The notes under the pieces were generated by a model. The model saw only the letters and a program-made list of their open reading frames with translations. It was not told the DNA's origin and did not search any database. From positions 21,757 to 85,756 of the forward strand of contig JAJYWO010000002.1 of the NCBI GenBank assembly GCA_021791445.1: a DNA stretch of 64,000 nt. The letters run 5' to 3'. The position numbers were made by a program, and so were the translations under genes. Origin of the DNA: a bacterium. GTDB taxonomy: Bacteria; Patescibacteriota; Minisyncoccia; UBA6257; UBA9933. Below, piece by piece: positions 3,114 through 56,038 of this stretch. Each line of letters starts with the position of its first letter. Positions within the stretch are counted from its first letter, which is position 1.

Positions 3114-3688
3114 AAAAAAATCTCAAATCTAAAATCTCAAATCTCAAATCTTCAGACGGCTTTACCTTAGTGGAGCTTATTATGGCAATGAGCATTTTTG
3201 TGATTTTGGTGTCAATCGCGGTTGGCGGATTTATCAACATTTTAAGGAATCAAAGACTAGCCATCGCTTTGATGTCCGTTAACGACAATATGAGTTTAAG
3301 CATGGAACAAATGGCGCGCGAAATAAGAACCGGATATAACTTTATCAAAATATCCGACGAGGAATTCCAATTTGTCAACGCAAATAACAGAATAGTTTGG
3401 TATAGGCTGAGCAAGGGCGCCATAGAAAGAGTCACGGAAAACGCGTCTTTGGAAAAGAATCCCCAAAAAATCACCGCTGACAACGTAAAAATAGTGAAAT
3501 TTAACGTGGGAATTTGCGGGAGAAATCTCGACCCGAATTTAATTCTTGATTCTTGCGGCATCGGAGGAAGCGCGTATCCGCCGAGAATCACTTTAAGTTT
3601 TACCATAACCAGCGCCGAACCGGATATTGAAAGATTGAAAATTTTTACCAATATTCAAACAACAATAAGTTCAAGAATATTGATATAA
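3110..3688 (+). CDS. Pseudopilin-like protein carrying an in-frame heptanucleotide repeat
   Basis: DGFTLVELIMAMSIFVIL prepilin motif. N-terminal NLKSKISNLKSS is encoded by (TCTCAAA)n at 3121-3151. Confidence 0.6.
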   Translation: MKKNLKSKISNLKSSDGFTLVELIMAMSIFVILVSIAVGGFINILRNQRLAIALMSVNDNMSLSMEQMAREIRTGYNFIKISDEEFQFVNANNRIVWYRLSKGAIERVTENASLEKNPQKITADNVKIVKFNVGICGRNLDPNLILDSCGIGGSAYPPRITLSFTITSAEPDIERLKIFTNIQTTISSRILI

Positions 3689-5426: not shown

Positions 5427-6803
5427 ATGAAGAAAGCAATCCGCATACATTTTATAGGCATAGGAGGCATTGGAGTAAGCGCGTTAGCGCGCTATTTTTT
5501 GTCTGAAGGCCATAAAATCAGCGGTTCGGACGCTTCCCGTTCGGAAATCACAGACGAATTAAAGAAAGAAGGCATAAAGATCTTAATTGGCCACAAAGCG
5601 GCTAATATCTTCAAGAGTATCGATTTAATAATTCATAGCGCCGCTGTTAATAAAAATAACCCAGAAATTGGAGGGGCTGAAAAACTTGGCATTCCCCTGC
5701 AATCTTACAGTCAGGCGCTCGGCGAATTGACGAAACAGCATAAAACAATTGCCGTGGCCGGCACTTGCGGCAAAAGCACCACCACCGCCATGCTTTCGCT
5801 TGTTTTTGCAAAAGCCGGATTAGACCCAACCGTGATAATCGGCACCAAACTTAAAGAATTTGGCGAAAAAAATTTCAGGAAGGGCAAAAGCGATTATTTA
5901 ATAATAGAAGCGGACGAGCATTTCAAGTCTTTTTTGGATTACTCCCCTTTTGCGGCTATTATCACCAATATTGACCGCGATCATTTGGATTTTTATAAAA
6001 ATCTCAATAATTTAAAAAAATCTTTTCTGGACTTCATCGGGAATATTTGTTCAGGCGGCGTTTTAGTTGTTAATAAAGACGATAAAAATTTATTCGGTTT
6101 AAAAAATAAAATCCAAAAAATTGCCAAGAAAAATAAATTAAAAATTATCTGGTATGGCAAAGAGGAAAAATTAAAAAATATTTTAAAAATACCGGGCAAA
6201 CACAATGTTTCCAACGCAACAGCTGTTCTTGAAATGGCAAAAGCGGTCGGCGTAAAAGAAAAAGTCATTTTAAGAGCGTTAAGCGAATACCGCGGCGCCT
6301 GGCGCAGAATGGAATACCGTGGAAATCTCAAATCTCAAATCTCAAATCTCAAAATTTCGGTTTATGACGATTACGCTCATCACCCCTCCAAAATAAAAGC
6401 CGCTTTGGCGGGATTTCGCGAAAAATATCCGAAATCGCGAATTATTTGCGTTTTCCAACCGCATCAGTTACAGCGGTTAAAATATTTATTCAAGGAATTT
6501 TCCGAATCATTCAATGACGCAGATGATTTAATTTTATTGGATGTTTATAAAGTAAAAGGCCGCGATGAGTCTCCTTCTAAAATTAATTCTCAAAAACTGG
6601 CAGAAGCGATAAAGAGAAAGAAAAATTCATCAGAGGTTTTATATCTCAAATCCGCCGGCTGGCGGGAAAATAATCTCAAAAAAGAGATTGAGAATATTAT
6701 TCGCAATTCGCGGCATTCGCATACATTCGCGGATTCGTATCATGTAATAGTGATGATGGGCGCCGGAGACATTTATAAATTAACCGATAAATTAATTAAA
6801 TAA
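5427..6803 (+). CDS. murC: UDP-N-acetylmuramate--L-alanine ligase (MurC/Mpl family)
   Basis: IHFIGIGGIGVSALA..GSD N-terminus and AGTCGKSTTT P-loop. The ATG at 5427 is preferred over the GTG at 5418. Contains an in-frame (AATCTCA)4 repeat at 6324-6352. Confidence 0.8.
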   Translation: MKKAIRIHFIGIGGIGVSALARYFLSEGHKISGSDASRSEITDELKKEGIKILIGHKAANIFKSIDLIIHSAAVNKNNPEIGGAEKLGIPLQSYSQALGELTKQHKTIAVAGTCGKSTTTAMLSLVFAKAGLDPTVIIGTKLKEFGEKNFRKGKSDYLIIEADEHFKSFLDYSPFAAIITNIDRDHLDFYKNLNNLKKSFLDFIGNICSGGVLVVNKDDKNLFGLKNKIQKIAKKNKLKIIWYGKEEKLKNILKIPGKHNVSNATAVLEMAKAVGVKEKVILRALSEYRGAWRRMEYRGNLKSQISNLKISVYDDYAHHPSKIKAALAGFREKYPKSRIICVFQPHQLQRLKYLFKEFSESFNDADDLILLDVYKVKGRDESPSKINSQKLAEAIKRKKNSSEVLYLKSAGWRENNLKKEIENIIRNSRHSHTFADSYHVIVMMGAGDIYKLTDKLIK

Positions 6804-8817: not shown

Positions 8818-8979
8818 CTAAGAGCACTTTTCAATAATAATCGGGGCGCGGGTGAATTCGCGGTTTGCCAGATAGCCTAAACCGAAACTCAAAGTGGCGA
8901 CAACAATAATTAAAAACGCAATCATAATATCGCGTTGATTTTCTTTAAACCACTCCTTAAAAGAGTTTATAAAGTCCAT
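8818..8979 (-). CDS. Unannotated 53-aa small membrane protein (MDFINSFKEWFKENQRDIMIAFLIIVVATLSFGLGYLANREF...)
   Basis: My own translation. One TM helix. Its stop abuts the -35 box of the downstream promoter. Confidence 0.35.
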   Translation of the reverse strand: MDFINSFKEWFKENQRDIMIAFLIIVVATLSFGLGYLANREFTRAPIIIEKCS

Positions 8980-9002
8980 AAAGTTTATAAAGTTATAAAG
9001 TT

Positions 9003-9731
9003 TTAAATATTAAGATAGTTGCTCCACTTATCGTACAGTTCCTTCGTCGCTCTTAAATCGCCAGCGTTGTATCGGGCGATTTCCAAAAATTTTTTCTCTT
9101 TGTACAATCTGCCAACGTCGTCTCCGGTGACGCCGTCTTCTTTGGGGCTTTTTATGTTAAAAAGTTTGCTCCACAAATGCAGACTCCCCTTTTTGCGCAT
9201 ATTACCTTGAAAAGTGAGCTGGTCCGCCAAATCAATGTGCGTACAAGTTTTTTGTTGATATAAATACCGACTTTCGGAAAGATTTTTCGTGGGTCTGATA
9301 CCGTGATAAGCCGAGCGAATCATCAAAAACGGTCCGTCAAATTGCCGGCTGCTGAATCCGATAAATTCATCGTATATTTGGCTGCCCTTCCAGAAATGTT
9401 CCAACATTTCTTTTTCCGTCATTTGCTTGAAAGTGATGCCGTTTTCGCTGAATTCCTCTCCGCCAGCCGGCGGATTTTGTCCGGGCGCGCTGTAATAAAC
9501 AACCCCTTGGTTTTTCGCGTAATCCAAAACGCCGATTGCCACAATTTCTCCGGTTAAAGGCGAAAAACCGAGCCCGTTTTTCAGTTCTTCCAGAGCCACT
9601 TGATAATCCTCTTCTCCAGTTGATTCCTTTTTAATCCAGCGCGTCAAAGAATCTTGCGTTGTCTCGTCCAAAGAATCAAAATCAACTCCGATTGTCTCAA
9701 TATCAAAAATAAGCTTATTAGTTATTGACAT
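9003..9731 (-). CDS. RNase H-like 3'-5' exonuclease (DEDDy type)
   Basis: FDIET (Exo I), HIDLAD and Y-x3-D (YNAGD) motifs. Confidence 0.55.
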   Translation of the reverse strand: MSITNKLIFDIETIGVDFDSLDETTQDSLTRWIKKESTGEEDYQVALEELKNGLGFSPLTGEIVAIGVLDYAKNQGVVYYSAPGQNPPAGGEEFSENGITFKQMTEKEMLEHFWKGSQIYDEFIGFSSRQFDGPFLMIRSAYHGIRPTKNLSESRYLYQQKTCTHIDLADQLTFQGNMRKKGSLHLWSKLFNIKSPKEDGVTGDDVGRLYKEKKFLEIARYNAGDLRATKELYDKWSNYLNI

Positions 9732-10048: not shown

Positions 10049-10490
10049 TTTTAACCGTTGTTTTTACTCCTTTACCGAGATTTATCTCTATTTGATGTTC
10101 GCCGATTATTTTAATCGGCTTTTCTAATTTAATTTCCAGATTATTCTCAACATATCCGCGCAAATCTGCGTTTATATCTGCGTCAATCCGCGTTTTGATG
10201 TCTTCTTTCGTAATAGAGCCAAACACTTCACCCTTTTTACCGACATTGAGCGAAAATACGAATTCGCGCTCGGATAATTCTTTTACTAAAGATTCCAGTT
10301 TTGATTTCAATTCTTTTCCTCGTTTTTCCAGCGATAATTTTTTCGCTTCCAATTCTTTTGTCGCGGAATCAGTGGCGATTTTCGCCAACCCTCGGGGAAT
10401 CAGAAAATTTCTGGCGTAGCCGTCTTTAATTTCCTTAATGTCAAATTTTTTGCCGATTCCCTTTATATTTTGGAGAATAATTATTTTCAT
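10023..10490 (-). CDS. rplI: Ribosomal protein L9
   Basis: [32 protein letters not shown]. Confidence 0.85.
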
Positions 10491-11752
10491 AATTGAGATT
10501 TCAAAATCTCTATCGCTTTTTCTAGTTGCGGGTCGCGGTCGGCTTTAATATCTTCTTCCGTGAGATTCACTTCATAATCCGGAATAATGCCGTTTTTCTC
10601 AATCAAGCCGCCGTTCGGCATCAGCCAATGCGCAACGGTTATTTTCACCGATGAACCATCATTTAATTTTTCAAGTTCTTGAACCGTTCCTTTGCCGTAG
10701 CTTTTTTTGCCGATTAATTTAATTCCCCTGTTGTCGCGCAAAGCGCCGGCAAGAATTTCTGAAGCCGAAGCTGAACCCTCGTTTATTAAAATCACCATCG
10801 GCATATCTTTGAAAAATCCGCTGTTATTCGCTTTAAACTCTTCTTTTTCGCCGGAGCCGAATTCTTCGGTTACAACCAATTCGCCCGGTTTCAAAAACCA
10901 ACCCGCTAAATTAACGGATGCTTCCAGATAGCCGCCCGGATTATTCCTTAAATCAAGAATAATTCCTTTTGGATTTTGCATTGCTGCTTTGACGGCTGAT
11001 TGGTAAAACAAGAACGGCGCGTTTTCGTAAAAATTATAAAGATGGAAATATGCGATGTCTTTTCCTTCGGTTTCGCTCAGGGCAAGCATTTCAAAATCAA
11101 TGGTTGGAATTTGAATTATGTCGCGAACAATGGGAAATTCTTTCGGTTCGTTCCAGCCGTTTCTTTGAATGGTTAAAACAACGGTCGTTCCGCGCGGCCC
11201 TCTTATCAATTTAACTGCTTCGTCAACCGACATATCGATTGATACTTTGTCGTCTATTTTTAATATTTTATCCAGCGCTTTTAAGCCCGCTCTTTCCGCC
11301 GGAGTGTCTTTCAGCGGCGAAATTACAACCAGTTGGTCGTTGCGTCGGCCGATTTCCATTCCCACGCCGGAAAATTCGCCGCTGATTTCCTCATTGAATT
11401 TTTTAGCGTCCGACGGCGGCATAAAGACCGTGTTCGGGTCTTCCAAAGAATCAAACAAGCCGGAAATAGCGCCATAAACAAGTTTTTGATTGTCAACTTT
11501 TCCGGTGTCAACGTATTTTTCTTTCAAAATTTTCCACGCCTGCCAGAAGATATTAAAATCAACGGCTTCGGGTTTGCCTTCTTCAATATTGGCGACTCCG
11601 CGGAAAATAACGGTTTGGGGATTTTCAACGCCTTTGTTGTATCCCAAATAAAAGGCTTCTGCGGCTATTACGGCGACGATTGCCAACATAATTATCGCGC
11701 GAAACCATTTATTTTTAATGACTGTTTTGATAAATTTTTTCATTTTAAGCAT
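10487..11752 (-). CDS. ctpA: Carboxy-terminal processing protease (S41, PDZ-containing)
   Basis: GSASASEILAGALRDN...SYGKGTVQ catalytic region. N-terminal TM segment. Confidence 0.85.
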   Translation of the reverse strand: MLKMKKFIKTVIKNKWFRAIIMLAIVAVIAAEAFYLGYNKGVENPQTVIFRGVANIEEGKPEAVDFNIFWQAWKILKEKYVDTGKVDNQKLVYGAISGLFDSLEDPNTVFMPPSDAKKFNEEISGEFSGVGMEIGRRNDQLVVISPLKDTPAERAGLKALDKILKIDDKVSIDMSVDEAVKLIRGPRGTTVVLTIQRNGWNEPKEFPIVRDIIQIPTIDFEMLALSETEGKDIAYFHLYNFYENAPFLFYQSAVKAAMQNPKGIILDLRNNPGGYLEASVNLAGWFLKPGELVVTEEFGSGEKEEFKANNSGFFKDMPMVILINEGSASASEILAGALRDNRGIKLIGKKSYGKGTVQELEKLNDGSSVKITVAHWLMPNGGLIEKNGIIPDYEVNLTEEDIKADRDPQLEKAIEILKSQL

Positions 11753-13714: not shown

Positions 13715-14836
13715 TCAAATTATCACCCCGCCGCCAAGCATTTCGCCTTTTTTGTCGTAGAATACGGCGGATTGGCCGGGAGCTATAAATTTAACAGGCG
13801 CGTCAAATTCAATTTTCAATTTTGAATTCTGAATTTTCAATTTCGCCGAAACTAATGGTTGGCGATAACGCACTCGCGCGTAAATTGTTATTCGCTTATT
13901 CGCGCGAATTAGAGAATAACAATTTGGATTTATAAAATTTACACCTGTCAATTGGATTTCTTTTCTGTATAACGCCGGACTATCTTCTCCTTCGGCAACC
14001 ACAATAATATTTTTCTTTATATTTTTTTCAACCACATAATATGGCTTTTTGGAGCCGCCGATGCCCAATCCGTGCCGCTGGCCGATGGTGTAAAAATGCG
14101 CGCCTTTGTGTTTGCCTATTTTTTTGCCGAAAATATCCAAAACATTCCCCCTTTTTTCGGGAATGTATTTTTTTAAAAAATCATCAAGCGAAACTTTTCC
14201 CAAAAAACAAATTCCCTGTGAATCCTTTTTTTCGGCTGTCGCCAATCCGGCTTTTTTGGCGATTTTTCGCACTTCGTTTTTCAAATAACCGCCAATCGGG
14301 AAAAGACAATGCTTTAATTGTTTCTGCGTCAAAGTCCAAAGGAAATACGATTGATCTTTATTTGTGTCTTTGGCTTGCCAAAGACTAAATTTTGAATTTT
14401 GAATTTTGAATTTTGAATTTGTTTGGGATTTGGGATTTCGAATTTGGGATTTTTGCAAGCGGACATAATGACCGCTTGCGATGTAATCCGCTCCCATTTT
14501 CAACGCTTTATTCAGAAATAAGCCGAACTTAATTTCGCGATTACACATCACATCCGGGTTCGGCGTAATCCCCTTCTTATATCCTTTTACCATATATTCC
14601 ACCACTTTCTTTTTGTATTCTTCTTCAAAATCCCAAACGTAAAAAGGAATTTTCAATTTTTCAGCCACGCGGCGAGCGTCTTCGGCGTCGCGCTCGCTGC
14701 ATCCGTCTAAATTATAACAGCGCATAAAAACACCGACTACTTTATAGCCTTGTTTTTTTAATAATAAAGCGGCGACGCTGGAATCAACGCCGCCCGACAT
14801 TGCCACAAATACAGTTTTCTTATTATTTTTCTTCAT
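13715..14836 (-). CDS. mnmA: tRNA 2-thiouridylase MnmA
   Basis: VFVAMSGGVDSSVAA PP-loop. Carries two in-frame heptamer repeats, at 13808-13845 and 14406-14473. Confidence 0.9.
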   Translation of the reverse strand: MKKNNKKTVFVAMSGGVDSSVAALLLKKQGYKVVGVFMRCYNLDGCSERDAEDARRVAEKLKIPFYVWDFEEEYKKKVVEYMVKGYKKGITPNPDVMCNREIKFGLFLNKALKMGADYIASGHYVRLQKSQIRNPKSQTNSKFKIQNSKFSLWQAKDTNKDQSYFLWTLTQKQLKHCLFPIGGYLKNEVRKIAKKAGLATAEKKDSQGICFLGKVSLDDFLKKYIPEKRGNVLDIFGKKIGKHKGAHFYTIGQRHGLGIGGSKKPYYVVEKNIKKNIIVVAEGEDSPALYRKEIQLTGVNFINPNCYSLIRANKRITIYARVRYRQPLVSAKLKIQNSKLKIEFDAPVKFIAPGQSAVFYDKKGEMLGGGVII

Positions 14837-16556: not shown

Positions 16557-17465
16557 ATGAAGAAAAGTTATAAAATCAACAGTATAAAAATAACAGATTC
16601 AAATTACCCTTCTTTGCTTAAAGAGATTCCGGACGCGCCGGAAAAGCTTTATATTATCGGCGAATTGCCGCCGGATTCTCCGATTGGCGGACCGCATATC
16701 GCCATTGTGGGCACAAGAAAAGCCGGTGCGACAGGCCGCAGATTTGCCAGAGAGTTGGCGAAAAAACTTGTTGAATCGGGCGCCGTTATTGTGAGCGGTT
16801 TGGCCATGGGAATTGACACCGCGGCCCACGAAGGCGCGGTTTTGGCCGGCGGCAAAACAATCGCAGTTTTGGCGAATGGACTGGACACAATTTATCCGGC
16901 GCAAAATGAAAATTTGGCCGAGAAAATTCTTGAATTTAACGGAGCAATTATTTCCGAATATGAACCGGGGACGCCGTCTTTCCAAAATCAATTTCTTGAA
17001 CGCAACCGCATTGTAAGCGGTTTAAGCATTGCCACAATCGTCATTGAGGCGCCCGAACATTCCGGTTCTTTGGTTACCGCGCGTTTGGCGGCTGAACAAG
17101 GCCGCGATGTTTTTGTTATTCCGGGCTCTATTGATAATCCTAATTATCGCGGTTCACATAAGCTTATTAGGGACGGCGCGGTATTGGTCGCTTCTATTGA
17201 AGATACTATGGAAGAATTGGGTGATAAAATTCCAAATTATAAATCACAAATTACAAATAAATCACAAATACAAAATTACAAAAAACAAATTAAAGATGAA
17301 AATCAATTGATAATTTATAAAGCGCTTCAAGAAGCCGGCGGACCACTTACTATTGACGAAATTGTCAAAATAACTAAACTTGAACCCCAAATCGCCAATC
17401 AAGCCGTTGCTTTTTTAATTATCGCTGAGATAATAAAAGAAGCGGATGGAAAATATAGTTTATAA
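16557..17465 (+). CDS. dprA: DNA processing protein DprA (Smf)
   Basis: IAIVGTRKAG...VIVSGLAMGIDTAAHEGAL Rossmann-like core. In-frame repeat at 17236-17292. Confidence 0.85.
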   Translation: MKKSYKINSIKITDSNYPSLLKEIPDAPEKLYIIGELPPDSPIGGPHIAIVGTRKAGATGRRFARELAKKLVESGAVIVSGLAMGIDTAAHEGAVLAGGKTIAVLANGLDTIYPAQNENLAEKILEFNGAIISEYEPGTPSFQNQFLERNRIVSGLSIATIVIEAPEHSGSLVTARLAAEQGRDVFVIPGSIDNPNYRGSHKLIRDGAVLVASIEDTMEELGDKIPNYKSQITNKSQIQNYKKQIKDENQLIIYKALQEAGGPLTIDEIVKITKLEPQIANQAVAFLIIAEIIKEADGKYSL

Positions 17466-20331: not shown

Positions 20332-22044
20332 ATGGATGTCAAGGATTTAATTAGGGATTATTTTAATGATGATGAAAAGCGGCTTATCAGGCGCGCTTTT
20401 GATTTTGCCAAAAAACAGCACCAAGGGCAGAAAAGAAAATCCGGCGAGCCGTATTTTACCCATTGTTTTCAAACCGCGCTAAAACTTGCCGAATGGCAAA
20501 TGGACGCTACGACAATCTCCGCCGGTTTGCTTCACGATGTTATTGAAGATACGAAAATCCCGCTGGAAAATTTTAAAAAAGAATTTGGCGAAGAAATCGC
20601 TTTTCTTGTTGACGGCGTCACGAAAATCGGACGTGTGAAATATCGCCAGCAAAATGGTGAAGTGACCGCCATACAATCGGAAAATATCCGCAAGATGATT
20701 TTGGCGTTGAGCCAGGATTTACGCGTCATATTCATCAAACTCGCCGACCGATTGCATAATATGAAAACGCTCGGCGCTCTGCCTCCGCAAAAACAAAAAA
20801 GGATCGCCTTGGAAACCGCGGAAATTTACTCGCCTATCGCCTATCGCTTGGGAATGGCGAATTTGGCCGGCGAATTGGAAGATTTAGCCTTCCCCTTTCT
20901 TCATCAAAAAGAATATAAATGGCTTTCGGAAAACATTAAAGAAAAATTTGAAGAGCGCCAGAAATATTCGGAAAAAGTGAAAATTGAAGTTGAAAAAGCG
21001 CTGAAAGAGCACAAAATAGAGCCGATAAAAATAGATTTCCGCGCCAAAAGATACAGCAGTTTGTATAAAAAATTGTTCCGGACCAGTATGAATCTGGAAC
21101 AGATTTACGATTTAGTGGCGTTGAGAATAATTGTGAAAACAGTTGAAGAATGCTACGCGGTTTTGGGCATTATTCATCAACTTTGGCCGCCTATGCCCGG
21201 CAGAATAAAAGATTATATTGCCATGCCGAAGCCGAACGGCTATCGCAGTTTGCACACCACGGTTTTCTGCGTTGACAACAAGCCGACCGAATTTCAAATC
21301 AGGACTGCGGAAATGCATGAGGAAGCGGAAAACGGCATCGCGGCTTATTGGGCTTATTCCCAGGCAAAAAGCGGCAAAGATTATCAAAAAAAGAAAGCGA
21401 TTTTCGCGGAGAAAAAGGAATTGGCGTGGATTAACCAATTAAAAGAATGGCAGGGAGAAACCGCTGGTTCCGAAGAATTTCTGCAATCATTGAAAATAGA
21501 TTTTTTAAAAGACAGGATTTTCGCCATTACTCCCAAGGGCGAGGTTGTTGATTTGCCGGCTGGTTCCACTCCGGTGGATTTCGCTTATATGATTCATACG
21601 GACATAGGCAACCAATGCGTCGGCGTGAGGATTAACGGTAAAATAATGCCGCTTGATTATCAACTGCAATCCGGAGATTTGGTGGAAATTCTGGTGCAAA
21701 AAAGCAAAAAACCGTCGCAATCCTGGCTTGAATTCGCCAAAACTTCCATTGCCAAAAAAAGAATCAAGGCGGCGCTCAGAGGTTTGCCGAGCATTATGCG
21801 CGGAAAATCCGATATATTTGAATTCAAAATAATCGCCGAAGACAGAGTTGGGTTGATTAAGGATGTTTCATCGGTGTTTTCCCGGAGCCATATTAACATT
21901 CAAAATCTCAATACCGCCGATATGGCGGAACAATCGGTAGTCAGGGCGCGCTGCGAAATAAACGAGGAAAAAACCGCCAAGTTATTGGTCTTGAAATTGA
22001 AAAAAATAAAAGGAGTAAGGGAAATAAGTTTTAGGAGGGCTTAG
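20332..22044 (+). CDS. rsh: Bifunctional (p)ppGpp synthetase/hydrolase (RelA/SpoT homolog)
   Basis: HD domain (HDVIEDT), synthetase motif RIKDYIAMPKPNGYRSLHTTV, TGS and ACT regions. Confidence 0.9.
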   Translation: MDVKDLIRDYFNDDEKRLIRRAFDFAKKQHQGQKRKSGEPYFTHCFQTALKLAEWQMDATTISAGLLHDVIEDTKIPLENFKKEFGEEIAFLVDGVTKIGRVKYRQQNGEVTAIQSENIRKMILALSQDLRVIFIKLADRLHNMKTLGALPPQKQKRIALETAEIYSPIAYRLGMANLAGELEDLAFPFLHQKEYKWLSENIKEKFEERQKYSEKVKIEVEKALKEHKIEPIKIDFRAKRYSSLYKKLFRTSMNLEQIYDLVALRIIVKTVEECYAVLGIIHQLWPPMPGRIKDYIAMPKPNGYRSLHTTVFCVDNKPTEFQIRTAEMHEEAENGIAAYWAYSQAKSGKDYQKKKAIFAEKKELAWINQLKEWQGETAGSEEFLQSLKIDFLKDRIFAITPKGEVVDLPAGSTPVDFAYMIHTDIGNQCVGVRINGKIMPLDYQLQSGDLVEILVQKSKKPSQSWLEFAKTSIAKKRIKAALRGLPSIMRGKSDIFEFKIIAEDRVGLIKDVSSVFSRSHINIQNLNTADMAEQSVVRARCEINEEKTAKLLVLKLKKIKGVREISFRRA

Positions 22045-22064
22045 GTTTTTAATAGCGCCCCCCT

Positions 22065-22322
22065 CTAAAACTTTTCTCGCTCACGACGCTCAGGTTAAAT
22101 AAATCAAATCACTCCAATCGCCCCGCACCTTTTCTTTTAATGATTTTTCTTTAATTTTACACTTAAGACGAAAGTCGGCTTCGCCTTTTAACTTTTTTTA
22201 TACTGTAAATCATGGCTGGAAAAGGTGCGGGGCTTCAATCCGCTCATTGATTTATAATTAACCTTGCGCGATGTTCGCTATGAAAAGTTTTGGAGGAGGG
22301 GTGTAAATAAAACTGAAAAATT
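22065..22322 (+). repeat. MITE-like element, copy A. About 60-bp imperfect terminal inverted repeats flank a 14-bp stem (GCCCCGCACCTTTT/AAAAGGTGCGGGGC) that encloses roughly 95 nt.
   Basis: The termini match the reverse complement of 42055-42306 at about 85%. The core differs between the two copies. Confidence 0.55.
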
Positions 22323-23690: not shown

Positions 23691-23705
23691 CCGACTCATA
23701 TAACC

Positions 23706-23756
23706 GCTCCCATAGCTTAGTGGTAAATCCGCCAGCTGGCGGACTTTTAAGCAATT
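23706..23756 (+). pseudogene. tRNA-Lys 5' fragment in which the D-stem 3' strand and anticodon-stem 5' strand are replaced by palindrome TCCGCCAGCTGGCGGA
   Basis: GCTCCCATAGCTTAGTGGTAAA is identical to the 5' end of the intact tRNA-Lys. It then runs palindrome (23728-23743) followed by CTTTTAAGCAATT. Confidence 0.5.
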
Positions 23757-23768
23757 AATTAATATATT

Positions 23769-24032
23769 ATGGAAAAATTTTTTGTCTATGCTATTTACAA
23801 TAAAGAAAAGAATAAAATTTATATTGGACATACAATTAATTTAGAAAATAGATTAAAAAGACATAATGGGTTATTGAAAAATAAAAATAAATCATTTACA
23901 AGTAAAAATAGCGGCGTATGGGAAATAATTTATAATGAGAATTTAAATGCAAGAAAAGAAGCGATTCTAAGAGAAAAACAATTAAAAAGCGCTAAGGGTA
24001 GAGAATTTGTAAAAAGTTTGATAAGAATATAG
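23769..24032 (+). CDS. Stand-alone GIY-YIG nuclease (YhbQ/Slx1-like, 87 aa)
   Basis: FFVYAIY...IYIGHT.NLE.RLKRHN plus conserved downstream E and R..GRE residues. Confidence 0.75.
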   Translation: MEKFFVYAIYNKEKNKIYIGHTINLENRLKRHNGLLKNKNKSFTSKNSGVWEIIYNENLNARKEAILREKQLKSAKGREFVKSLIRI

Positions 24033-24064
24033 AATATAAAATATTGGGTAAAAAATATAAATAC

Positions 24065-24135
24065 GCTCCCATAGCTTAGTGGTAAAGCAGTTGCCTTTTA
24101 AGCAATTGATCAAGGTTCGATTCCTTGTGGGAGCA
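24065..24135 (+). tRNA. tRNA-Lys(TTT)
   Basis: Canonical cloverleaf. Anticodon loop CTTTTAA. Discriminator A. Confidence 0.9.
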
Positions 24136-24151
24136 CATTTGGCTTTTTTAA

Positions 24152-24228
24152 ATCCATAGCTTAGTGGTAAATCCGCCGGCTGGCGGACTTTTAAGCAATT
24201 GATCAAGGTTCGATTCCTTGTGGGAGCA
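24152..24228 (+). pseudogene. tRNA-Lys-like pseudogene with a degenerate 5' acceptor and palindrome TCCGCCGGCTGGCGGA (24172-24187) in place of the anticodon-stem 5' strand
   Basis: The 3' two-thirds are identical to tRNA-Lys. The 5' acceptor AAATCCA cannot pair with TGGGAGC. Confidence 0.5.
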
Positions 24229-24240
24229 AATTAAATAAAA

Positions 24241-24267: not shown

Positions 24268-25383
24268 TTAATCCATTTCTTTTTTTAAATCCTCCAATAT
24301 TTTTTTCGCTTTCGCATTCGGTTTTTTCGGGGTTTTGATTTTCAGTTCAACAACCAGATTACCGCGGCCGTGCGAGCCGAAAATCGGCATCCCCTGTTTT
24401 GAAATTATCAAATCTCCTTTCAAATCAAAATTTTCCGGAATTTCAATCTGGATTTTATTGCCGTCAATCGTTGGCGCTTCAATTTTTTCTCCCAATAAAA
24501 TATCAACCAGCTTCACTTCTTTTTTAACAAACAAATCATTTCCGCGCCTGTTGAAAATATGATGCGGCTTTATTTTGATTCGAACATAAAGGTCGCCGGT
24601 TCCCGCCCCTTTTTCTCCGGCTTCGCCCGCGCCTTGAACTTTTATTAATTGTCCGTCCATTATGCCCGCCAAAATTTCAATTTTTACATTGCGTTCGCCG
24701 GAAATTCTTCCGGCGCCGCGGCAATTATGGCAAACTTTTTTCGGAATCTGTCCGCTGCCTTGGCATTCTTTGCATTGTTTGATTTGGGTAAAATTGCCGA
24801 AAAAGGTGCTTCTCGCTTCTTTAATCTCTCCCCTGCCTCCGCAAACAGCGCATTTTTCCAATCCTTCTTTAATATCATAGCCTTTGCTTTCGCATTTTTC
24901 GCAAGAAACGGAAATGCCGTATTTTAATTCTTTTTTCGCGCCGTAAAAAGCTTCTTCAAGCGTTATTTCCTGGATAATTTCAACATCCGCTCCGCGATGG
25001 TAAGTGCGGCGTTTTTGTCTTACGCCCATTCCTTCGAAAAACGCGTTGAAAATATCGCCCAAGTCGGCCATATCGCCGAAAGCCGAAGGGTCCCAGCCCG
25101 AGGCTGGTCCGCCTTGGGCGGAAAAATCAAATCCGAATCCAAACGGACCGTTTCCATCGGAAGCGAATCCGCTTTGGCCGTCAAAAACCCTGCCGTATTT
25201 GTCATATTGCTCCCGCTTGTTTTTATCCGACAAAACCGCGTACGCCTCGGCGATTTCCTTGAATTTTTTTTCATCGCCGCTTTTTTTGTCCGGATGATAT
25301 TGATGCGCTAATTTTCGGAAAGCTTTTTTAATTTCGTCTTCCGACGCGCCTTTGTTTATGCCGAGAATTTTATAGTAATCCAA
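24268..25383 (-). CDS. dnaJ: Chaperone DnaJ
   Basis: J domain with HPDK and four CxxCxGxG repeats. Apparent TTG start. Confidence 0.9.
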
Positions 25384-25465
25384 CGCAGTTCATAAAGTTA
25401 TAAAGTTATAAAGTTATAAAGTAAAATTTAGAAAACTTTATAACTTTAAAAACATTATAAACTTT

Positions 25466-26470
25466 CTACTTTAATATAATTATCTCCTTGCTTCTTCCTT
25501 CAAGCTCCACATTGGCGAAACCGAACGCCAAAAGAAGTTCGTAGATTATGAACGCCAAAAAAGAAATTATCAAGCGAACCGGCATCGCCAAAATTTCCAA
25601 AGTCATAAAAATAGTCAATACGATGCCGATTAAAATTATTGATTTGATATTTTCCGGAAAAGAATTGAATTTGTATTTCGCCGCCTCGTAAAGCGCTTCG
25701 CTGATTTTAAGATTTCCGCTTACGGGCGCGCCGATGAAATCAACGGCTTTCGCTTCAATTTCTCCGGCCGCTTGTTTGACCATTAAATTTTTGACGGCTT
25801 TCGGCAAAATGCTTAATTCCGGAGTCTGTTCAATCTGTTTTTTCGCCAGACTTTCGGCGAATTCTTTGAATGTGAGCGATAAATCCAATTCAGGATAAAA
25901 TTTTTGCGCCACTAAAACCGAAGGCGACAAGATTTTATTAAAATTAGACTCGGAAATGAAAAAATCTTTTTTCTCCGCGGAATCGGCGTAAATGTAAACA
26001 ACGCTTATAAATAAGAAAATGGCCGCCACGGCCTTCGGCAAAACCGTTTTGCTTATTTTCCAAAAGCTCACTTTAAGCGAATTTTTAAGTTCCCTGATTC
26101 CGTTAAGATTAGCCGCGATCAACGCCAAAAAAACAAAAGCGATTCCGATTAATATCGCGGTATTGGAAACATTGTCGTAAAAAGCCGCCAACAATCCCGC
26201 GCAACTCAAAAAAATCGCCAAAACGCTGATTTTAAAGCTTTTAATGAAAAGCGTTTGCAAAAGAAAAATTATCAGGAAAATAGTTACGGATAATCCGGAA
26301 AATAAAAGAAAATTTCCTTCGTTGCCTTGAAAAAATAATTTAAAAAAATAACCGAAAGCGGAAAGCGAGGCAATGCTTAAAACCGCCAAAACGGCGATTT
26401 TAAGCATTGACCTGTCGGTATCAACCGAATTCGCAATTGTATTACTGCTGCTGTTGTTGTCCTGAGTCAT
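25466..26470 (-). CDS. Polytopic membrane protein of unknown function, between dnaK and dnaJ
   Basis: Multiple hydrophobic helices. No motif assigned. Confidence 0.45.
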
Positions 26471-28790: not shown

Positions 28791-28864
28791 TGTATAATTA
28801 TAAATATGTTTTCATAAAATATTTATTTTCGACCATTCGCTTTATAAACATTTATCTTATAAAA

Positions 28865-28902
28865 TATAACATTTTATCTACGATCGCAAATAAAATGTTA
28901 TA
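28865..28902. promoter_or_regulatory. 38-bp palindromic operator TATAACATTTTATCTACGATCGCAAATAAAATGTTATA, about 75 nt upstream of grpE
   Basis: Inverted repeat seen in the sequence. It belongs to the four-member family, with the others at 28990, 29688 and 45311. Confidence 0.5.
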
Positions 28903-28989
28903 TTTTAATAATAATATCTATTTTTAATAAATCAATAGTAAATTATATAGATAAAATATAGTTAATTCAATTTTAGAATAAAAATAAAA

Positions 28990-29027
28990 TATAACAAATT
29001 GTTTACGATCGTAAGTAATTTGTTATA
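28990..29027. promoter_or_regulatory. Second palindromic operator TATAACAAATTGTTTACGATCGTAAGTAATTTGTTATA
   Basis: Inverted repeat with a central TTACGATCGTAA. Lies between the regulator stop and grpE. Confidence 0.5.
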
Positions 29028-29038
29028 CAATATTAAAA

Positions 29039-29662
29039 TTATTCTTCAAAATTTTTAAATTTTTCAAATATTCCGTCATCATCTATTTCTCCAATAGTAA
29101 TCATTCTAATACATTGATAGAGATTTTTCCTTAAAATATCCTCATAAACATCTTCTTCAATGGGTCGCTTTCCCATAAAAACACTTCTCTGTATTGGTTG
29201 ATAATTTATTGACAATAATTGAAATCTTAACCAGTCGCGTTCTTTTCTTTTCTTCTCGGGGATATCAAACATCACCATTCTCCATTTACCGTCCCATGTT
29301 TCCCGCTCCGGTTTATTTTCTTTGTTCTTTAAAAAATCGATTATTTTCAAGCCGGCCGAAGTAATATGATATTTCCTGCCTTTTTTCGTTATCAATCCTT
29401 TTTGCTGAAGCCGCCACAGCGTTGTTCGCGCGCTGTTTTTTCTCATATTTTGCAGTTCGTCGTAATAATCCCAAAAATTCCCGAGATTTGCCATTTTGCC
29501 GTAGCTTCTTCCCAAACTATGTCCGCCGGTTTCCAAAATTTCCGAAAGCGCGGCTGTTCCCCTTTCCGCCAGTCCGAAAATCAGGGCCAAGCCGGCCATA
29601 CTGACATTAATCGGCAATTCTTCAACGGTTTTTTTTAGTTGTTTTTTATTTATGCCGGACAT
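29039..29662 (-). CDS. PaaX-like transcriptional regulator (N-terminal wHTH plus PaaX_C-like domain), in the position usually held by hrcA
   Basis: The wHTH region reads LGRSYGKMANLGNFWDYYDELQ...TTLWRLQQKGLI. The C-terminal WDGKWRMVMFDIPE..R..R..LR..L...QRSVFM matches the PaaX C-domain pattern. Confidence 0.55.
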   Translation of the reverse strand: MSGINKKQLKKTVEELPINVSMAGLALIFGLAERGTAALSEILETGGHSLGRSYGKMANLGNFWDYYDELQNMRKNSARTTLWRLQQKGLITKKGRKYHITSAGLKIIDFLKNKENKPERETWDGKWRMVMFDIPEKKRKERDWLRFQLLSINYQPIQRSVFMGKRPIEEDVYEDILRKNLYQCIRMITIGEIDDDGIFEKFKNFEE

Positions 29663-29687
29663 TTATTATTTTTTATTCCGCATTAAA

Positions 29688-29731
29688 AAGTATAACATCT
29701 TACTGCCGATCGGCAATGAAATGTTATACTT
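29688..29731. promoter_or_regulatory. Palindromic operator AAGTATAACATCTTACTGCCGATCGGCAATGAAATGTTATACTT, 26 nt upstream of the regulator gene and divergent from cysS
   Basis: Near-perfect 44-bp palindrome of the same family. Confidence 0.5.
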
Positions 29732-29803
29732 TTTGTATTTTATTAATATCCTTGGAGTTGTCAATAGTTGCGCATAAAGAGGAAATTTAATAGAATTAAC
29801 GCA

Positions 29804-34883: not shown

Positions 34884-34929
34884 ATTACTACTCTCAGCCC
34901 TAGGCTGATCCGCCTCGGGCGGAAGCCAC
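34884..34929 (-). repeat. tRNA-Ser 5'-like fragment (GGAGGCGTGGCT) interrupted by two hairpins, TCCGCC-CGA-GGCGGA and TCAGCC-TAG-GGCTGA, then GGCTGAGAG
   Basis: Minus-strand reading compared with tRNA-Ser GGAGAGGTGGCTGAGCGG. Same architecture as 23706-23756. Confidence 0.45.
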
Positions 34930-41980: not shown

Positions 41981-42054
41981 ATTTTCCGCTTACCTTTTAA
42001 ACAATTATATCAAAAATATTGCAAAAAATCTTTTCGCATGTTCTAATAACCTTT

Positions 42055-42306
42055 TTTTTATTACGCCCCTCTCCAAAACTTTTCATAGCGAACATCGCGC
42101 AAGGTTAAGGATAAATCAATGAGCGGAATGAAGGATTTTTTGACTATAAATTTAATGGTCGGAAAACTCCTGACATAATTTTACGAAGTAAAATTATGGC
42201 GGAGGGTAAACGGGCACCGTTAAATTTATTCAAAAAATCAGATTGGAGCGATTTGATTTATTTAACCTGAGCGTCGTGAGCGAGAAAAGTTTTAGAGAAG
42301 GGCGCA
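42055..42306 (-). repeat. MITE-like element, copy B. Inverted relative to copy A, with the same terminal repeats and a different core that contains hairpin CATAATTTTAC-TTCG-GTAAAATTATG.
   Basis: Both ends match 22065-22322 in reverse complement. Abuts the stop codon of the SIMPL gene. Confidence 0.55.
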
Positions 42307-42311
42307 CCTCC

Positions 42312-43094
42312 CTACTCTATCTCGTATCTTAAAATTACATTGACCTTTATTTCCTGCGAACCGGGTTCTATTTGCGGGGCCGGCAAAGAAGTTTCCATCG
42401 CGGTTTTCGCAAAACCGCCGATTCCATATCCGTAAATCGGCTCCGAATAGCCGCCCTCGTCAATGGAAAGCAATTTCCCGACTTTAAAATCCCCCGCTTC
42501 GGCAATCAATTTCGCCCGCTCTTTAGCTTTTTTAATCGCTTCTTCGCGCGCTTTATCTTGAATAACTGATAAATCGTCAATGTTGAAAGAAAGCTGGGAA
42601 ACCGAATTGGCGCCGTTTTGGACAACTCCCGCCATAATATCGCCTATTTTTTCAAAATTTCTTATTTTTACGGCAATCGTTTGGGTAATCGTATATCCGA
42701 CGATTTCAGCCGGCGGACACGGCTCTGCCGCTTCCCGCGAAATCGGACAAGAATAATACTGGTACCGCGGGTCAAGATTGTAATTTTGCGTTTTAATGTC
42801 TTTATCCACGACTCCGCTTAATTTCGCGAAATTGATTATTTTATTCGTTTTGTCGGTATTTTCCTTTTGCAATTTAGCGATATCTTTGCCGCCCTCGGTT
42901 ATCACGCTAAAAGTGAATTGCGCGATATCCGGAATCGCCGTTATTTTACCCTCTCCGCTCGCTGAAAAACTGCGGAAAGAAGACGGCTGAATAGATTTTG
43001 AATAACTGTTCACGTACGACATTACCGACAAAGCGAAAATAAACAAAACCGCGATTATGGCAATACCGAGATAATTTTTTATTTTTATATTCAT
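42312..43094 (-). CDS. SIMPL/DUF541 (BP26-like) periplasmic protein
   Basis: N-terminal signal/TM segment. Family-level resemblance only. Confidence 0.45.
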   Translation of the reverse strand: MNIKIKNYLGIAIIAVLFIFALSVMSYVNSYSKSIQPSSFRSFSASGEGKITAIPDIAQFTFSVITEGGKDIAKLQKENTDKTNKIINFAKLSGVVDKDIKTQNYNLDPRYQYYSCPISREAAEPCPPAEIVGYTITQTIAVKIRNFEKIGDIMAGVVQNGANSVSQLSFNIDDLSVIQDKAREEAIKKAKERAKLIAEAGDFKVGKLLSIDEGGYSEPIYGYGIGGFAKTAMETSLPAPQIEPGSQEIKVNVILRYEIE

Positions 43095-45310: not shown

Positions 45311-45356
45311 AAAGTATAACATTTTGTTGTCGATCGACAACAAAATGTTATACTTT
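45311..45356. promoter_or_regulatory. 46-bp perfect palindrome AAAGTATAACATTTTGTTGTCGATCGACAACAAAATGTTATACTTT, 6 nt upstream of the rtcB ATG
   Basis: Same family as the grpE and regulator operators. No Shine-Dalgarno sequence lies between it and the ATG. Confidence 0.55.
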
Positions 45357-45378
45357 TCGCAATTTATAATTATTATTC

Positions 45379-45900: not shown

Positions 45901-46304
45901 ACATCAAAAACCAAAATAGTTTCCCATTCGCCTTTTTCGTTTTTCTTAATATCGGCTTCGTGGTAAGTGACAGCCTTGATATCTTCGTCAAAATTTTCAA
46001 CCGCTACGCCGTAAATTTCCGCTTTTAATTCTGTCTCGCTGAACTGTAAAAATTTTACATCAGCATAAATCTCTTTGTTTATTTGCGATTGCGCCAAAAC
46101 CTCGCTTAGAAAATCCACCAAAAGCGCTGTTTTGTCCGGCGATTGAATTTTAATCAGTTTTTTCGATATTGAAATTTGTGGTTTGTAATTTGGAATTTGA
46201 ACAAATGTCATTCCTTGTAACGCGTCGCGAAAAAGCGTTTCCAAATCTCCCGCCCTTACCGACATTCTCACATCCGCCGTATGTTTCAAAAATTTAAAAG
46301 GCAT
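45897..46304 (-). CDS. Archease (RtcB activator)
   Basis: N-terminus MPFKFLKHTADV matches the archease pattern and the size is right. Co-oriented with ligT and rtcB. Confidence 0.65.
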   Translation of the reverse strand: MPFKFLKHTADVRMSVRAGDLETLFRDALQGMTFVQIPNYKPQISISKKLIKIQSPDKTALLVDFLSEVLAQSQINKEIYADVKFLQFSETELKAEIYGVAVENFDEDIKAVTYHEADIKKNEKGEWETILVFDV

Positions 46305-49311: not shown

Positions 49312-50661
49312 ATGAAAATTGCAATCTTGGGATTCGGCAGCGAAGGAAAAGCGGTTTTGAAATTCCTTCAACAACGCGGACAGACGCGGAACAAACGCGG
49401 AATAACGCGGAATAATAATGAAATTTGGATTTTGGACAAAAATCATAATTTAAGGCCTCCGCAAGGCCTTCAATTTCAAGTTGGCGAAAATTATCTAAAA
49501 AACCTCGCTGATTTTGACATTGTTTTTCGCTCACCCGGAATCCCCTACAACTTGCCAGAAATTCAAAACGCGATTAAAAAAGGCGTAAAATTTTCCGGCG
49601 CCACAGACTTATTTTTTCAAAACGCCAGAAAAATCGGCTGTAAAATAATCGGCATTACCGGCACCAAAGGCAAGGGCACGATTTCAACTTTGCTTTACAA
49701 AATTTTGCGGAATGCCGGCAAAGATGTTTTTTTGGCGGGCAATATCGGCAAGCCCGCGTTGGATATTCTAGCGAAACTCAAAAAAAATTCCATCGTTATT
49801 TTGGAAATGTCCAGTTTTCAATTACAAGACTTACAACATTCTCCGGACATCGCCGTTGTTTTAAATGTTTTTGAAGATCATCTGGATAGCCATAAAAATT
49901 TTAAAGAATACATCAGCGCCAAGGCGCAAATTGCCAAATTCCAAAAACCAAATTCCAAAATATTCTATGACGCGAGCAATAAATGGAGCAAGTGGATTGC
50001 GCAAAAAAGCCCTGCCCAAAAATTCCCAATAAACCCTTTATTCTCTAATTCTGCAGAATTAGAGAATAAAGTAAAATCTGTCGTAAAAATACCGGGCGAA
50101 CATAATTTAAAAAACGCCGTAATAACGGCGACAGTGGCTAAATCCCTCGGCATTCCGGAAAATATCATCTTAAAAACCGTCAAAAACTACCGCGGCATGG
50201 AGCACCGCCTGGAATTGGTTCATTCCAACATTCTCAAGAATGTTGGAATGAATTTTTTTAACGATTCTGCTTCAACGAATCCTTATACAGCTGCGGCCGC
50301 GATTCGCGCTTTTCCGAATCAGCCGAAAATTTTAATCTGCGGAGGAAAAGACAAAAATCTTGACTACGCTCCCCTCGCCCAGGCATTAAAAAATTCTAAA
50401 ACGAAAATGGTAATTTTATTCGGCGAAAATAAAAAAAAAATAAATAAGGCAATCAATAATCAAAAACTAGCAATCAGGAAAGTGGAAAATCTACAACAAG
50501 CCGTTCAACTCGCCTACAAAACCGCTAAGCAATTACAACAATTAAAACAATATAACAATACAAACATCATCTTCTCCCCCGCCGCCGCCAGTTTTGACAT
50601 GTTTAAAGATTATAAAGACCGAGGCGAACAATTCAAAAAAATCGTGAAAAAGTTGAAATAA
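49312..50661 (+). CDS. murD: UDP-N-acetylmuramoylalanine--D-glutamate ligase
   Basis: MKIAILGFG N-terminus and GITGTKGKGT P-loop. In-frame decamer repeat (AACGCGGAAT)n at 49370-49412. Confidence 0.85.
   Translation: MKIAILGFGSEGKAVLKFLQQRGQTRNKRGITRNNNEIWILDKNHNLRPPQGLQFQVGENYLKNLADFDIVFRSPGIPYNLPEIQNAIKKGVKFSGATDLFFQNARKIGCKIIGITGTKGKGTISTLLYKILRNAGKDVFLAGNIGKPALDILAKLKKNSIVILEMSSFQLQDLQHSPDIAVVLNVFEDHLDSHKNFKEYISAKAQIAKFQKPNSKIFYDASNKWSKWIAQKSPAQKFPINPLFSNSAELENKVKSVVKIPGEHNLKNAVITATVAKSLGIPENIILKTVKNYRGMEHRLELVHSNILKNVGMNFFNDSASTNPYTAAAAIRAFPNQPKILICGGKDKNLDYAPLAQALKNSKTKMVILFGENKKKINKAINNQKLAIRKVENLQQAVQLAYKTAKQLQQLKQYNNTNIIFSPAAASFDMFKDYKDRGEQFKKIVKKLK

Positions 50662-53953: not shown

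Positions 53954-56038
<2,085 letters not shown>

Follow-up and report, generated by a model that had tools for sequence, protein, structure and literature searches.

How can tandem repeats with a unit of seven nucleotides (nt) reside in the reading frames of core bacterial enzymes? Non-triplet microsatellites in coding DNA are expected either to be purged or to act as on/off switches. In a 64,000-nt stretch of a patescibacterial genome (GenBank assembly GCA_021791445.1, contig JAJYWO010000002.1, positions 21,757 to 85,756; hereafter the window), heptanucleotide and octanucleotide arrays lie in murC, gatA, mnmA, valS, ligA and tsaE, and neither fate applies to them: they are in frame at fixed sites, with the unit turning over. 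The arrays are real, non-random and in frame, and in orthologs across the clade they hold the same sites, the 7-nt period being kept and the unit differing by lineage. The explanation that we favour, with a probability of roughly 60%, is that they are heptanucleotide (in some cases octanucleotide) microsatellites of the type known as STRRs (short tandemly repeated repetitive sequences) or long simple sequence repeats (long SSRs), made and homogenised in situ and filtered by selection.

The tandem repeats of the window were called with Tandem Repeats Finder (TRF) and their coding phase was read from the translations. Repeats of 7 and 8 nt inside coding frames, claimed in a preliminary description of this DNA, were found essentially at the places given there. 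All genic arrays are in frame within long open reading frames (ORFs), and at least seven unit classes occur in the window. PDB matches confirm the hosts MnmA, MurC, GatA, ValS, LigA and TsaE, and Pfam confirms DprA, MurD and the type IV pilin-like protein. On the forward strand, the pilin-like gene contains (AAATCTC)4.9 at 3118-3151, encoding KNLKSKISNLKS, and murC contains a perfect (AAATCTC)4.4 at 6323-6353, encoding GNLKSQISNLK in a beta-hairpin. The other core arrays lie in genes on the reverse strand. In mnmA, (TTCAATT)5.1 at 13808-13843 (site 2) encodes KLKIQNSKLKIE, and site 1 (14388-14452) consists of a perfect (AATTTTG)4.7 at 14388-14420, which reads (CAAAATT)n on the coding strand and encodes TNSKFKIQNSKF, and of (TTTGGGA)4.4 with 83% matches at 14422-14452, which reads (TCCCAAA)n and encodes KSQIRNPKSQT. 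Repeats had been described at both sites of mnmA; the one placed at 13808-13845 is present with the unit and span given above, and the interval 14406-14473 was off by ~18 nt, since positions 14454-14473 are ordinary mnmA coding sequence outside the arrays. Further arrays are (AGATTTG)5.1 in gatA at 51205-51240 (coding strand (CAAATCT)n, encoding SQISNLKSQILNL in a surface segment), the 8-nt array (AACTTTTA)4.8 in ligA at 54177-54214, which encodes 13 residues of the linker preceding the BRCT domain, and a 15-nt (7+8) array in tsaE at 56284-56323, encoding VKSYKVKSYKDYK. Two perfect arrays are found in valS: (AGTATAA)3.1 at 57881-57902, encoding VLYFILYT in a helix, and (ATTGGAA)4.4 at 58106-58136, encoding GISNFQFPISN in a loop of the anticodon-binding region.

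These arrays depart strongly from chance. When only perfect arrays with 2.6 or more units are counted (20-33 nt long), the window has six of period 7 and two of period 8, whereas 0.04 and 0.01, respectively, are expected from 100 dinucleotide-preserving shuffles. No such array of period 6, 9 or 12 is present in the window; these are the periods which coding sequence would most easily tolerate. A 35-nt lag-identity scan of the window produced hits only at lag 7 (six regions) and lag 8 (two regions), and none were obtained with triplet-shuffled controls. Because 7 is not divisible by 3, successive units of an array fall into all three frames, and the encoded peptide is periodic over seven residues. 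The window's MnmA protein is also present, with identical sequence, in ENA, NCBI (GCA_027339105.1) and Logan assemblies; this identity in three independent assemblies shows that the repeats are not an assembly artefact. The source and its relatives are metagenome-assembled genomes of Patescibacteria, the source being of a Paceibacteria type near Wolfebacteria/Paceibacterota.

In MurC and GatA, the segment length is held in most of 120 orthologs (52-86% identity) and the peptide is periodic over seven residues, with differing units that fall into 11 classes in MurC and 11 in GatA. The fraction of a site's residues accounted for by a single 7-nt unit is 0.76 for MurC versus 0.41 for random windows of the same proteins (p=1e-31), and 0.65 versus 0.38 for GatA (p=3e-32). 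In the DNA of the MurC hairpin from five genomes, the units AATCTCA, AAATTGA, AAGCTAA and AAGTTTC and one inverted pair were found, with lag-7 identities of 0.69-0.83; the inverted pair, (GAATTAA)n...(TAATTCA)n, corresponds to a variant longer by 14 residues. Two GatA relatives, each 86% identical to the protein of the window, already differ in their unit. Compared with known structures, the MurC array adds two residues (PDB 6cau) and the GatA array three (PDB 3h0l). The AlphaFold2 model of MurC (pLDDT, the predicted local distance difference test score, of 91.6) places the array in a hairpin with strands at residues 299-305 and 312-318 joined by a loop. GC-rich palindromes are found nested in the middle of array-encoded segments. 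Since selection at the protein level can yield a 21-nt but not a 7-nt period, a process acting on the DNA itself would have to renew the arrays.

At site 2 of MnmA, no net residues are added: the segment aligns without gaps to TVHVKGEKTEVIF of PDB 9hlv and its length is conserved among orthologs. In the AlphaFold2 model, which has the same overall pLDDT as that of MurC (91.6), residues 329-336 and 339-349 form two strands around an N-S turn (KLKIQ-NS-KLKIE) with pLDDT values of 94-97. As modelled, the site 2 array is the native C-terminal beta-hairpin and not an insertion. Its peptides are explained by a single 7-nt unit to 0.56, compared with 0.39 for control windows of the same proteins (p=3.5e-22). 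As in MurC and GatA, heptamers of differing units encode the same site in relatives of 52-86% identity. Site 1 adds 15 residues relative to PDB 9hlv at the tip of a hairpin, modelled as strands 125-131 and 148-154 with a low-confidence excursion (pLDDT ~60) at the tip. This site is hypervariable among 120 orthologs, ranging from no insert to ~50 extra residues, and the inserts of 10-50 residues differ in type: some are heptamer peptides, some are heptamer arrays paired in inverted orientation, and some are GC-rich hairpins of ~130-150 nt. Relatives of ~81% identity hold unrelated arrays at site 1, whereas a relative of 87% identity holds the same array. The extended hairpins of relatives, in MnmA as in MurC, are inverted array pairs.

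Other sequences in mnmA were also noticed. GC-rich inserts of ~130-160 nt, in frame and free of stops, occupy site 1 in nine related loci (L008, L013, L021, L039, L040, L051, L054, L062 and L072; at ~10350-10540 in most); they fold into long hairpins of very high stability (-56 to -86 kcal/mol) and belong to at least three sequence families. An in-frame palindrome of 44 nt at 13882-13925 of mnmA is 81% alike (TTATTC..GAATTAGAGAATAA) to a perfect 36-nt in-frame palindrome at 50036-50071 of murD. It is kept at the same position in five orthologs (L035, L036, L040, L053 and L074) and corresponds to a confidently predicted helix (residues 304-313).

The remaining hosts were compared with their homologs in the same manner. 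The valS loop array adds ~9 residues relative to PDB 1gax, whereas the helix array adds none and overlies a native hydrophobic helix. The LigA linker array adds ~0 residues (PDB 2owo) and the TsaE array four (PDB 1htw). In dprA, a degenerate 7-nt array (67% matches; 17227-17292, forward strand) encodes KIPNYKSQITNKSQIQNYKKQIK in an inter-domain linker. In the only three loci with the gene (L004, L005 and L020), this array is found at the same place and has been altered by substitutions and codon-sized indels; it is old and decaying. On the forward strand of murD, (CAAATTC)4.6 with 80% matches at 49927-49959 encodes QIAKFQKPNSKI. The array of the pilin-like gene is situated upstream of the cleavage/methylation motif G|FTLVE (Pfam N_methyl motif, residues 13-37), that is, in the leader, and is therefore probably absent from the mature protein. 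This is the only array at a 5' terminus; those of MnmA, MurC, GatA, ValS, LigA and TsaE are mid-gene.

The arrays lie only in surface hairpins, loops or linkers, or in a leader peptide that is cleaved off. The comparison with homologs contradicted the idea that all arrays add linkers, as the net length change relative to homologs is only 0 to +15 residues and several changes are 0: it amounts to +15 at MnmA site 1 and to 0 to +4 for MnmA site 2, MurC, GatA, the LigA linker and TsaE. The description of all hosts as indispensable does not hold for three of them, as model bacteria do not depend on mnmA, dprA or the pilin-like gene.

Several regularities restrict the units. On the coding strand they are A-rich, and the reverse complements of most of them contain TGA, so that the orientation of the arrays is forced. 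Avoiding stops does not by itself account for the A..T..C vocabulary, since 222 AT-rich rotation classes are free of stops. The encoded periods fit the pattern h-p-h-p-h-t-t (an amphipathic five-residue strand and a two-residue N/S/G/D/P turn), picked post hoc after examples had been seen, with a mean of 5.35 versus 4.90 for composition-matched stop-free heptamers (z=4.3) and with 27% versus 5.4% perfect matches. Array length peaks at 28-36 nt, and CAAATCT arrays longer than 41 nt make up 11% of the coding but 44% of the non-coding copies (p=0.02). Unit number does not differ in any of the clusters of at least 90% identity, nor in the MnmA relative of 87% identity, although this sample is small. 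The length differences seen in the clusters of at least 90% identity, considered as signs of phase variation, all resulted from start-codon calls or truncations, and the interpretation of TsaE proteins of 149 and 133 residues as differing by six 8-nt units was wrong. The strong constraint on copy number predicted in the preliminary description is in agreement with this constancy at 87-90% identity and above, with the length peak and with the shorter coding copies.

The related loci, 1.2 Mb around mnmA from 76 species-level genomes, contain 79 period-7 arrays, and 7 is the leading non-triplet period in them. The outgroup loci, which are those of SR1, Pelagibacter, actinobacteria and Bdellovibrionales and the distant ones labelled 'Saccharibacteria', contain no period-7 arrays. 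MnmA itself, with 7% of the bases, holds 41 of the 79. Outside MnmA, 38 arrays of period 7 compare with 9 of period 8, 13 of period 10, 8 of period 11 and 9 of period 13, and are merely level with the 39 arrays of period 12. ORFs of at least 100 residues contain 72 of the 79 arrays. Outside MnmA, however, the proportion is 31 of 38, which represents a mild depletion from coding DNA when compared with an open-frame coverage of 91.7% (p=0.035); the statement that there is no such depletion was therefore dropped. Many ENA records among these loci (within L004-L079) are titled 'uncultured Candidatus Saccharibacteria bacterium'. Their MnmA proteins are 55-82% identical to that of the window, whose repeat features they share; the label is probably not reliable as taxonomy.

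The phenomenon extends beyond this clade. CAAATCT, the only unit searched for in metagenomes, was found as (CAAATCT)4 on at least 120 contigs, with GC contents from 29% to 67% among the matches listed. In unrelated genomes, the identical array, encoding NLKSQISNLKS, is in frame in bona fide ValS, TsaD, MurD, GltX, TopA, pyruvate kinase, GuaA, GlmM and ComEC. In the unrelated loci bearing it (0.52 Mb), period 7 is again the leading non-triplet period and other period-7 arrays are abundant, including, in some loci, units of the cyanobacterial STRR type such as (TGACTGT)n; the phenomenon, though dense in Patescibacteria, thus also occurs outside them. Genes with the CAAATCT array from outside the candidate phyla radiation also hold further in-frame periodic peptides, such as DKRQAASDERQAASDERQAAS in the C-terminal region of a MurD of 60% GC (L097), and SDMRLSDMRHET and TSHLTPHTSHL occur in Bacteroidota-like genes (L131 and L145). 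All this suggests that in-frame heptamers are widespread.

According to the explanation by in situ homogenisation, replication slippage or template switching would generate the arrays and repeatedly homogenise them in place, in a form of concerted evolution. Purifying selection would keep the net length changes in multiples of 3 nt, maintain the stop-free A-rich orientation on the coding strand and keep the arrays short (~4-5 units). The units retained would be those encoding a peptide that fits into an exposed strand-turn-strand or loop, often with hydrophobic/polar alternation and a two-residue N/S/G/D turn. The effect of an array on its protein is probably neutral to slightly deleterious and not that of a switch.

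Besides the post hoc choice of the strand-and-turn pattern, a number of points weigh against this explanation. We infer the DNA mechanism and have seen no intermediate states. Simple slippage adds one unit and hence a frameshift, and does not explain how essential genes could attain or renew 4-5 units with no lethal intermediate. Tolerance alone fails to explain why 7 is preferred over 5, 10 or 11, given that the unit is also 7 nt in non-coding arrays and in cyanobacterial STRRs. The arrays of the related loci are not independent counts, since 41 of them come from the single gene mnmA. Strict quantisation in steps of seven residues is only loosely visible and is suggestive at most: segment lengths have modes of 12, 14 and 16 in MurC, with clusters near +7, +14 and +21, and are 35, then 42-43 and 49-50 in GatA. 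Moreover, some of the longer MurC and GatA variants are inserts of other types. An inverted partner array lies near 18 of the 79 arrays, as against 6 and 2 in controls, which hints at hairpin-based processes beyond simple slippage. Finally, the presence of the AT-rich CAAATCT array in genes of genomes of up to ~60% GC is more easily pictured as the result of templating or transfer.

GC-rich palindromes of two families form a distinct kind of repeat in some of the same genes. The D3 palindrome TCCGCCAGCTGGCGGA, with A/T-rich 7-mer-like flanks, is an in-frame insertion (QSASWRTK) in LigA at 54371-54418 on the reverse strand; further copies are located at 55502-55549, also in LigA, and at 57210-57257 in a PrsW protease (Pfam). 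The two LigA insertions add 13 and 14 residues relative to PDB 2owo. On the same strand, the D2 palindrome at 59740-59772 is an in-frame insertion (GFFAPEAHQ) near the N-terminus of ValS which adds nine residues relative to PDB 1gax, and other copies are found at 25094-25126 (DnaJ, Pfam) and 34895-34927 (intergenic). These palindromes are clean in-frame insertions that resemble Rickettsia palindromic elements (RPEs) and are distinct from the heptamer arrays. On the strand antisense to the host gene, two of the three D3 copies have scores like those of intrinsic terminators. A role as antisense terminators was set aside: the number of terminator-like sites, 22, is not above that in shuffles (16.2 +/- 3.8).

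The inverted partners and palindromes raise the possibility that the arrays are themselves small mobile or templated palindromic elements, or parts of them, resembling RPEs or MITEs (transposable elements of the miniature inverted-repeat type), with the heptamer tracts as arms copied by transposition or ectopic gene conversion. Such copying would account for the recurrence of one unit at 94-100% identity in three genes of the window and for the identical array in housekeeping genes of unrelated genomes (29-67% GC among the matches listed). It would also fit the 18 of 79 arrays with an inverted partner and the many MnmA site 1 inserts that are inverted array pairs, the GC-rich palindromes with 7-mer-like flanking tracts inserted cleanly in LigA and ValS, the ~150-nt hairpin inserts of relatives at the same MnmA hotspot, and the narrow array size of ~32 nt. 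We nevertheless regard this origin as unlikely. The 72 independent CAAATCT arrays share no common flank (information of at most 0.2 bits), begin and end in all seven phases, and in 65 cases lack any flanking duplication. The arrays consist of dozens of unrelated units which track the GC content of the genome, orthologous sites keep the period and switch the unit, and the net length change is often only 0 to +3 residues. Within the window, none of the arrays is linked to a transposase. On viral contigs the array is rare, occurring in 9 stretches of 2.9 million, and a phage vector was set aside for that reason. The likening of the arrays to RPEs in the preliminary description therefore holds as far as in-frame tolerance is concerned; RPE-like insertion is not supported, the net gains ranging from 0 to +15 residues, the units differing at the same ortholog sites and shared ends being absent. 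The likeness applies instead to the GC-rich palindromes of LigA and ValS and to the ~150-nt hairpin inserts in the MnmA of relatives.

Selection instead of mutation pressure could also have kept the period. If the 7-nt periodicity served in DNA or RNA, as a protein-binding platform, a signal for translational pausing or mRNA structure, or an antisense terminator together with the GC palindromes, one would understand why, at a given site, the period outlasts deep divergence and changes of sequence, why unexplained heptamer arrays abound in cyanobacteria, Xanthomonas and Beggiatoaceae (PMC4692102, PMC4679880), and why two of three D3 palindromes look like antisense terminators. However, the units are wholly different between sites and lineages, which means that there is no common recognition sequence; terminator-like sites do not exceed the shuffled number, and Rfam matches only tRNAs, 5S and 23S rRNA in the window, with no family overlapping the arrays. 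The old DprA array decays like neutral sequence and some MnmA orthologs have no array at site 1, all of which makes such a function improbable. We rate equally low the idea that the arrays are kept for a benefit to the protein, as hairpins or loops 'tunable' in seven-residue steps, for instance for contacts with a host or partner in an episymbiotic lifestyle. The location on hairpins and loops, the match of the encoded periods to a five-residue strand with a two-residue turn, the longer MurC, GatA and MnmA variants (some at about +7, +14 and +21 residues) and the range of 0 to ~50 extra residues at MnmA site 1 would suit it. On the other hand, cytoplasmic housekeeping enzymes such as these hosts have no evident use for variable loops, the insert at MnmA site 1 is predicted to be disordered, close relatives do not vary and length is mostly constant. 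Least probable by far is that the arrays are phase-variation (contingency) switches or assembly or sequencing artefacts. Seven-base units are classic slipped-strand substrates and one array is at the 5' end of the pilin-like gene, but the others are mid-gene in housekeeping genes, sequences clustered at 90% identity or more agree in unit number, three independent assemblies contain identical proteins, and orthologs from many studies keep the arrays. The earlier view of the arrays as tolerated in-frame features and not as switches is thus supported.

The window contains other repeats as well. Another period-7 array was called at 46169-46199. The 10-bp repeat described in murD exists and is better read as a 21-nt, seven-codon duplication (period 21, 1.9 copies, sub-period 10/11) at 49373-49412 on the forward strand, which encodes RGQTRNK/RGITRNN near the N-terminus. 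A mostly non-coding 8-nt array, (TTATAAAG)4.9 at 8964-9007 (TRF array 8967-9007), borders the 3' end of an exonuclease-like gene (9003-9731), and an inverted pair of non-coding 8-nt arrays, (ATAAAGTT)n ... (AACTTTAT)n, lies at 25387-25483 (TRF array 25387-25422) between dnaJ and the next gene. The tRNA-Lys(UUU) gene at 24065-24136 is situated between tRNA-Lys-like fragments at ~23702-23762 and 24150-24228, in both of which the GC-rich palindrome TCCGCC(A/G)GCTGGCGGA replaces the 5' strand of the anticodon stem; an ORF of 87 residues for a GIY-YIG nuclease (23769-24032; Pfam E=1.9e-16) is also found between the fragments. The region 23702-24232 looks like an insertion of the homing-endonuclease type with a duplicated or damaged tRNA target. 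Two intergenic copies of ~270 nt, at 22040-22320 and, as reverse complement, at 42050-42320, have ~60-nt ends of 93-95% identity and a variable centre of ~115 nt. Over their outermost ~20 nt, the two ends are mutually complementary (CCCCTCTAAAACTTTTC ... GAAAAGTTTTGGAGGAGGGG) and Rfam gave no match to these copies; the pair is MITE-like or a structured RNA. An intergenic palindrome of ~60 nt, AAAGTATAACAT..CGATCG..ATGTTATACTTT, is present in four copies (28861-28923, 28986-29048, 29687-29749 and 45311-45373) and may be an operator or other regulatory site or a small family of palindromic repeats.

If the homogenisation of the arrays in situ is true, they offer a tractable natural system for studying slippage and template switching under the constraint of a reading frame. 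They would also bear on the preference of bacterial long SSRs for 7 nt and would mean that mutation pressure can shape protein loops. Caution would then be needed in the annotation, alignment and phylogenomics of Patescibacteria, as these segments would be convergent by a DNA process and residue-level homology unreliable. We put forward a broader idea only tentatively, considering it somewhat doubtful: exposed hairpins and loops of essential enzymes, in a clade of Patescibacteria and in scattered genes elsewhere, may be encoded by self-homogenising heptamer arrays and continually rewritten by an intrinsic 7-nt step of the DNA that matches the seven-residue period of a strand plus turn. This would amount to satellite-style concerted evolution inside conserved genes, and the segments would form a class, not recognised before, of protein parts that are evolvable or driven by mutation. 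The unexplained bias of bacterial SSRs towards heptamers may in general have the same process behind it.

STRR sequences of cyanobacteria were reportedly described by Mazel and co-workers in 1990, and long SSRs are said, in work by Mrazek from 2007, to occur in large genomes. A report by Vioque from 1997, to go by its title, is said to place STRR arrays of heterocystous cyanobacteria within the gene for RNase P RNA. That case, known to us by title only, resembles ours in that heptamers reside in an essential gene, apparently in a permissive hairpin region; an RNA gene is under no frame or stop constraint, whereas the arrays of the window lie in coding frames. With the heptanucleotide STRRs and long SSRs, the arrays have in common the head-to-tail 7-nt units (typically about four or more), the many dispersed arrays with several units and the excess of period 7. 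Heptamers are over-represented among bacterial long SSRs with units of 5-11 nt (Mrazek et al. 2007, as cited in PMC4692102), and the heptamer arrays of Xanthomonas and Nostoc are mainly intergenic and under-represented in ORFs (PMC4692102). In contrast, the arrays described here are mostly in open frames (72 of 79; 31 of 38 outside MnmA) and resident at orthologous protein sites, and their host is a small-genome patescibacterium and not a heterocystous cyanobacterium. The direct repeats TAACTGA of marine Beggiatoaceae are abundant, of unexplained origin, common to distant lineages and intergenic, with a proposed regulatory role (PMC4679880). They are likewise 7-nt direct repeats in distant lineages, but represent one specific, intergenic unit.

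RPEs are palindromic elements of ~150 bp, grouped in families with conserved sequence and peptide, which are inserted in frame in housekeeping genes (PMC10969869). Like RPEs and in-frame MITEs, the arrays occupy fold-permissive sites of unrelated housekeeping genes and keep the frame; unlike RPEs, they measure 28-36 nt, are mostly non-palindromic (18 of 79 with an inverted partner), have no conserved ends or phase and often bring no gain in length. RPE-like behaviour is shown by the GC-rich palindromes of LigA, ValS, PrsW and DnaJ and by the ~150-nt hairpins in the MnmA of relatives. The contingency SSRs, for example those of Haemophilus influenzae, vary between close strains and switch genes for surface structures or host interaction (PMC2651432). 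The arrays share with them the non-triplet tandem repeats in coding sequence, which are able to change by slipped-strand mispairing, and differ in being constant at 87-90% identity and above, in their housekeeping hosts and in the frame being always intact. In the literature searched, no account was found of resident, in-frame, unit-changing heptamer arrays in core enzymes. The kind of repeat, as heptamer SSRs and STRRs, is thus already known; what appears to be new is its residence in core enzymes, in frame and with a changing unit.

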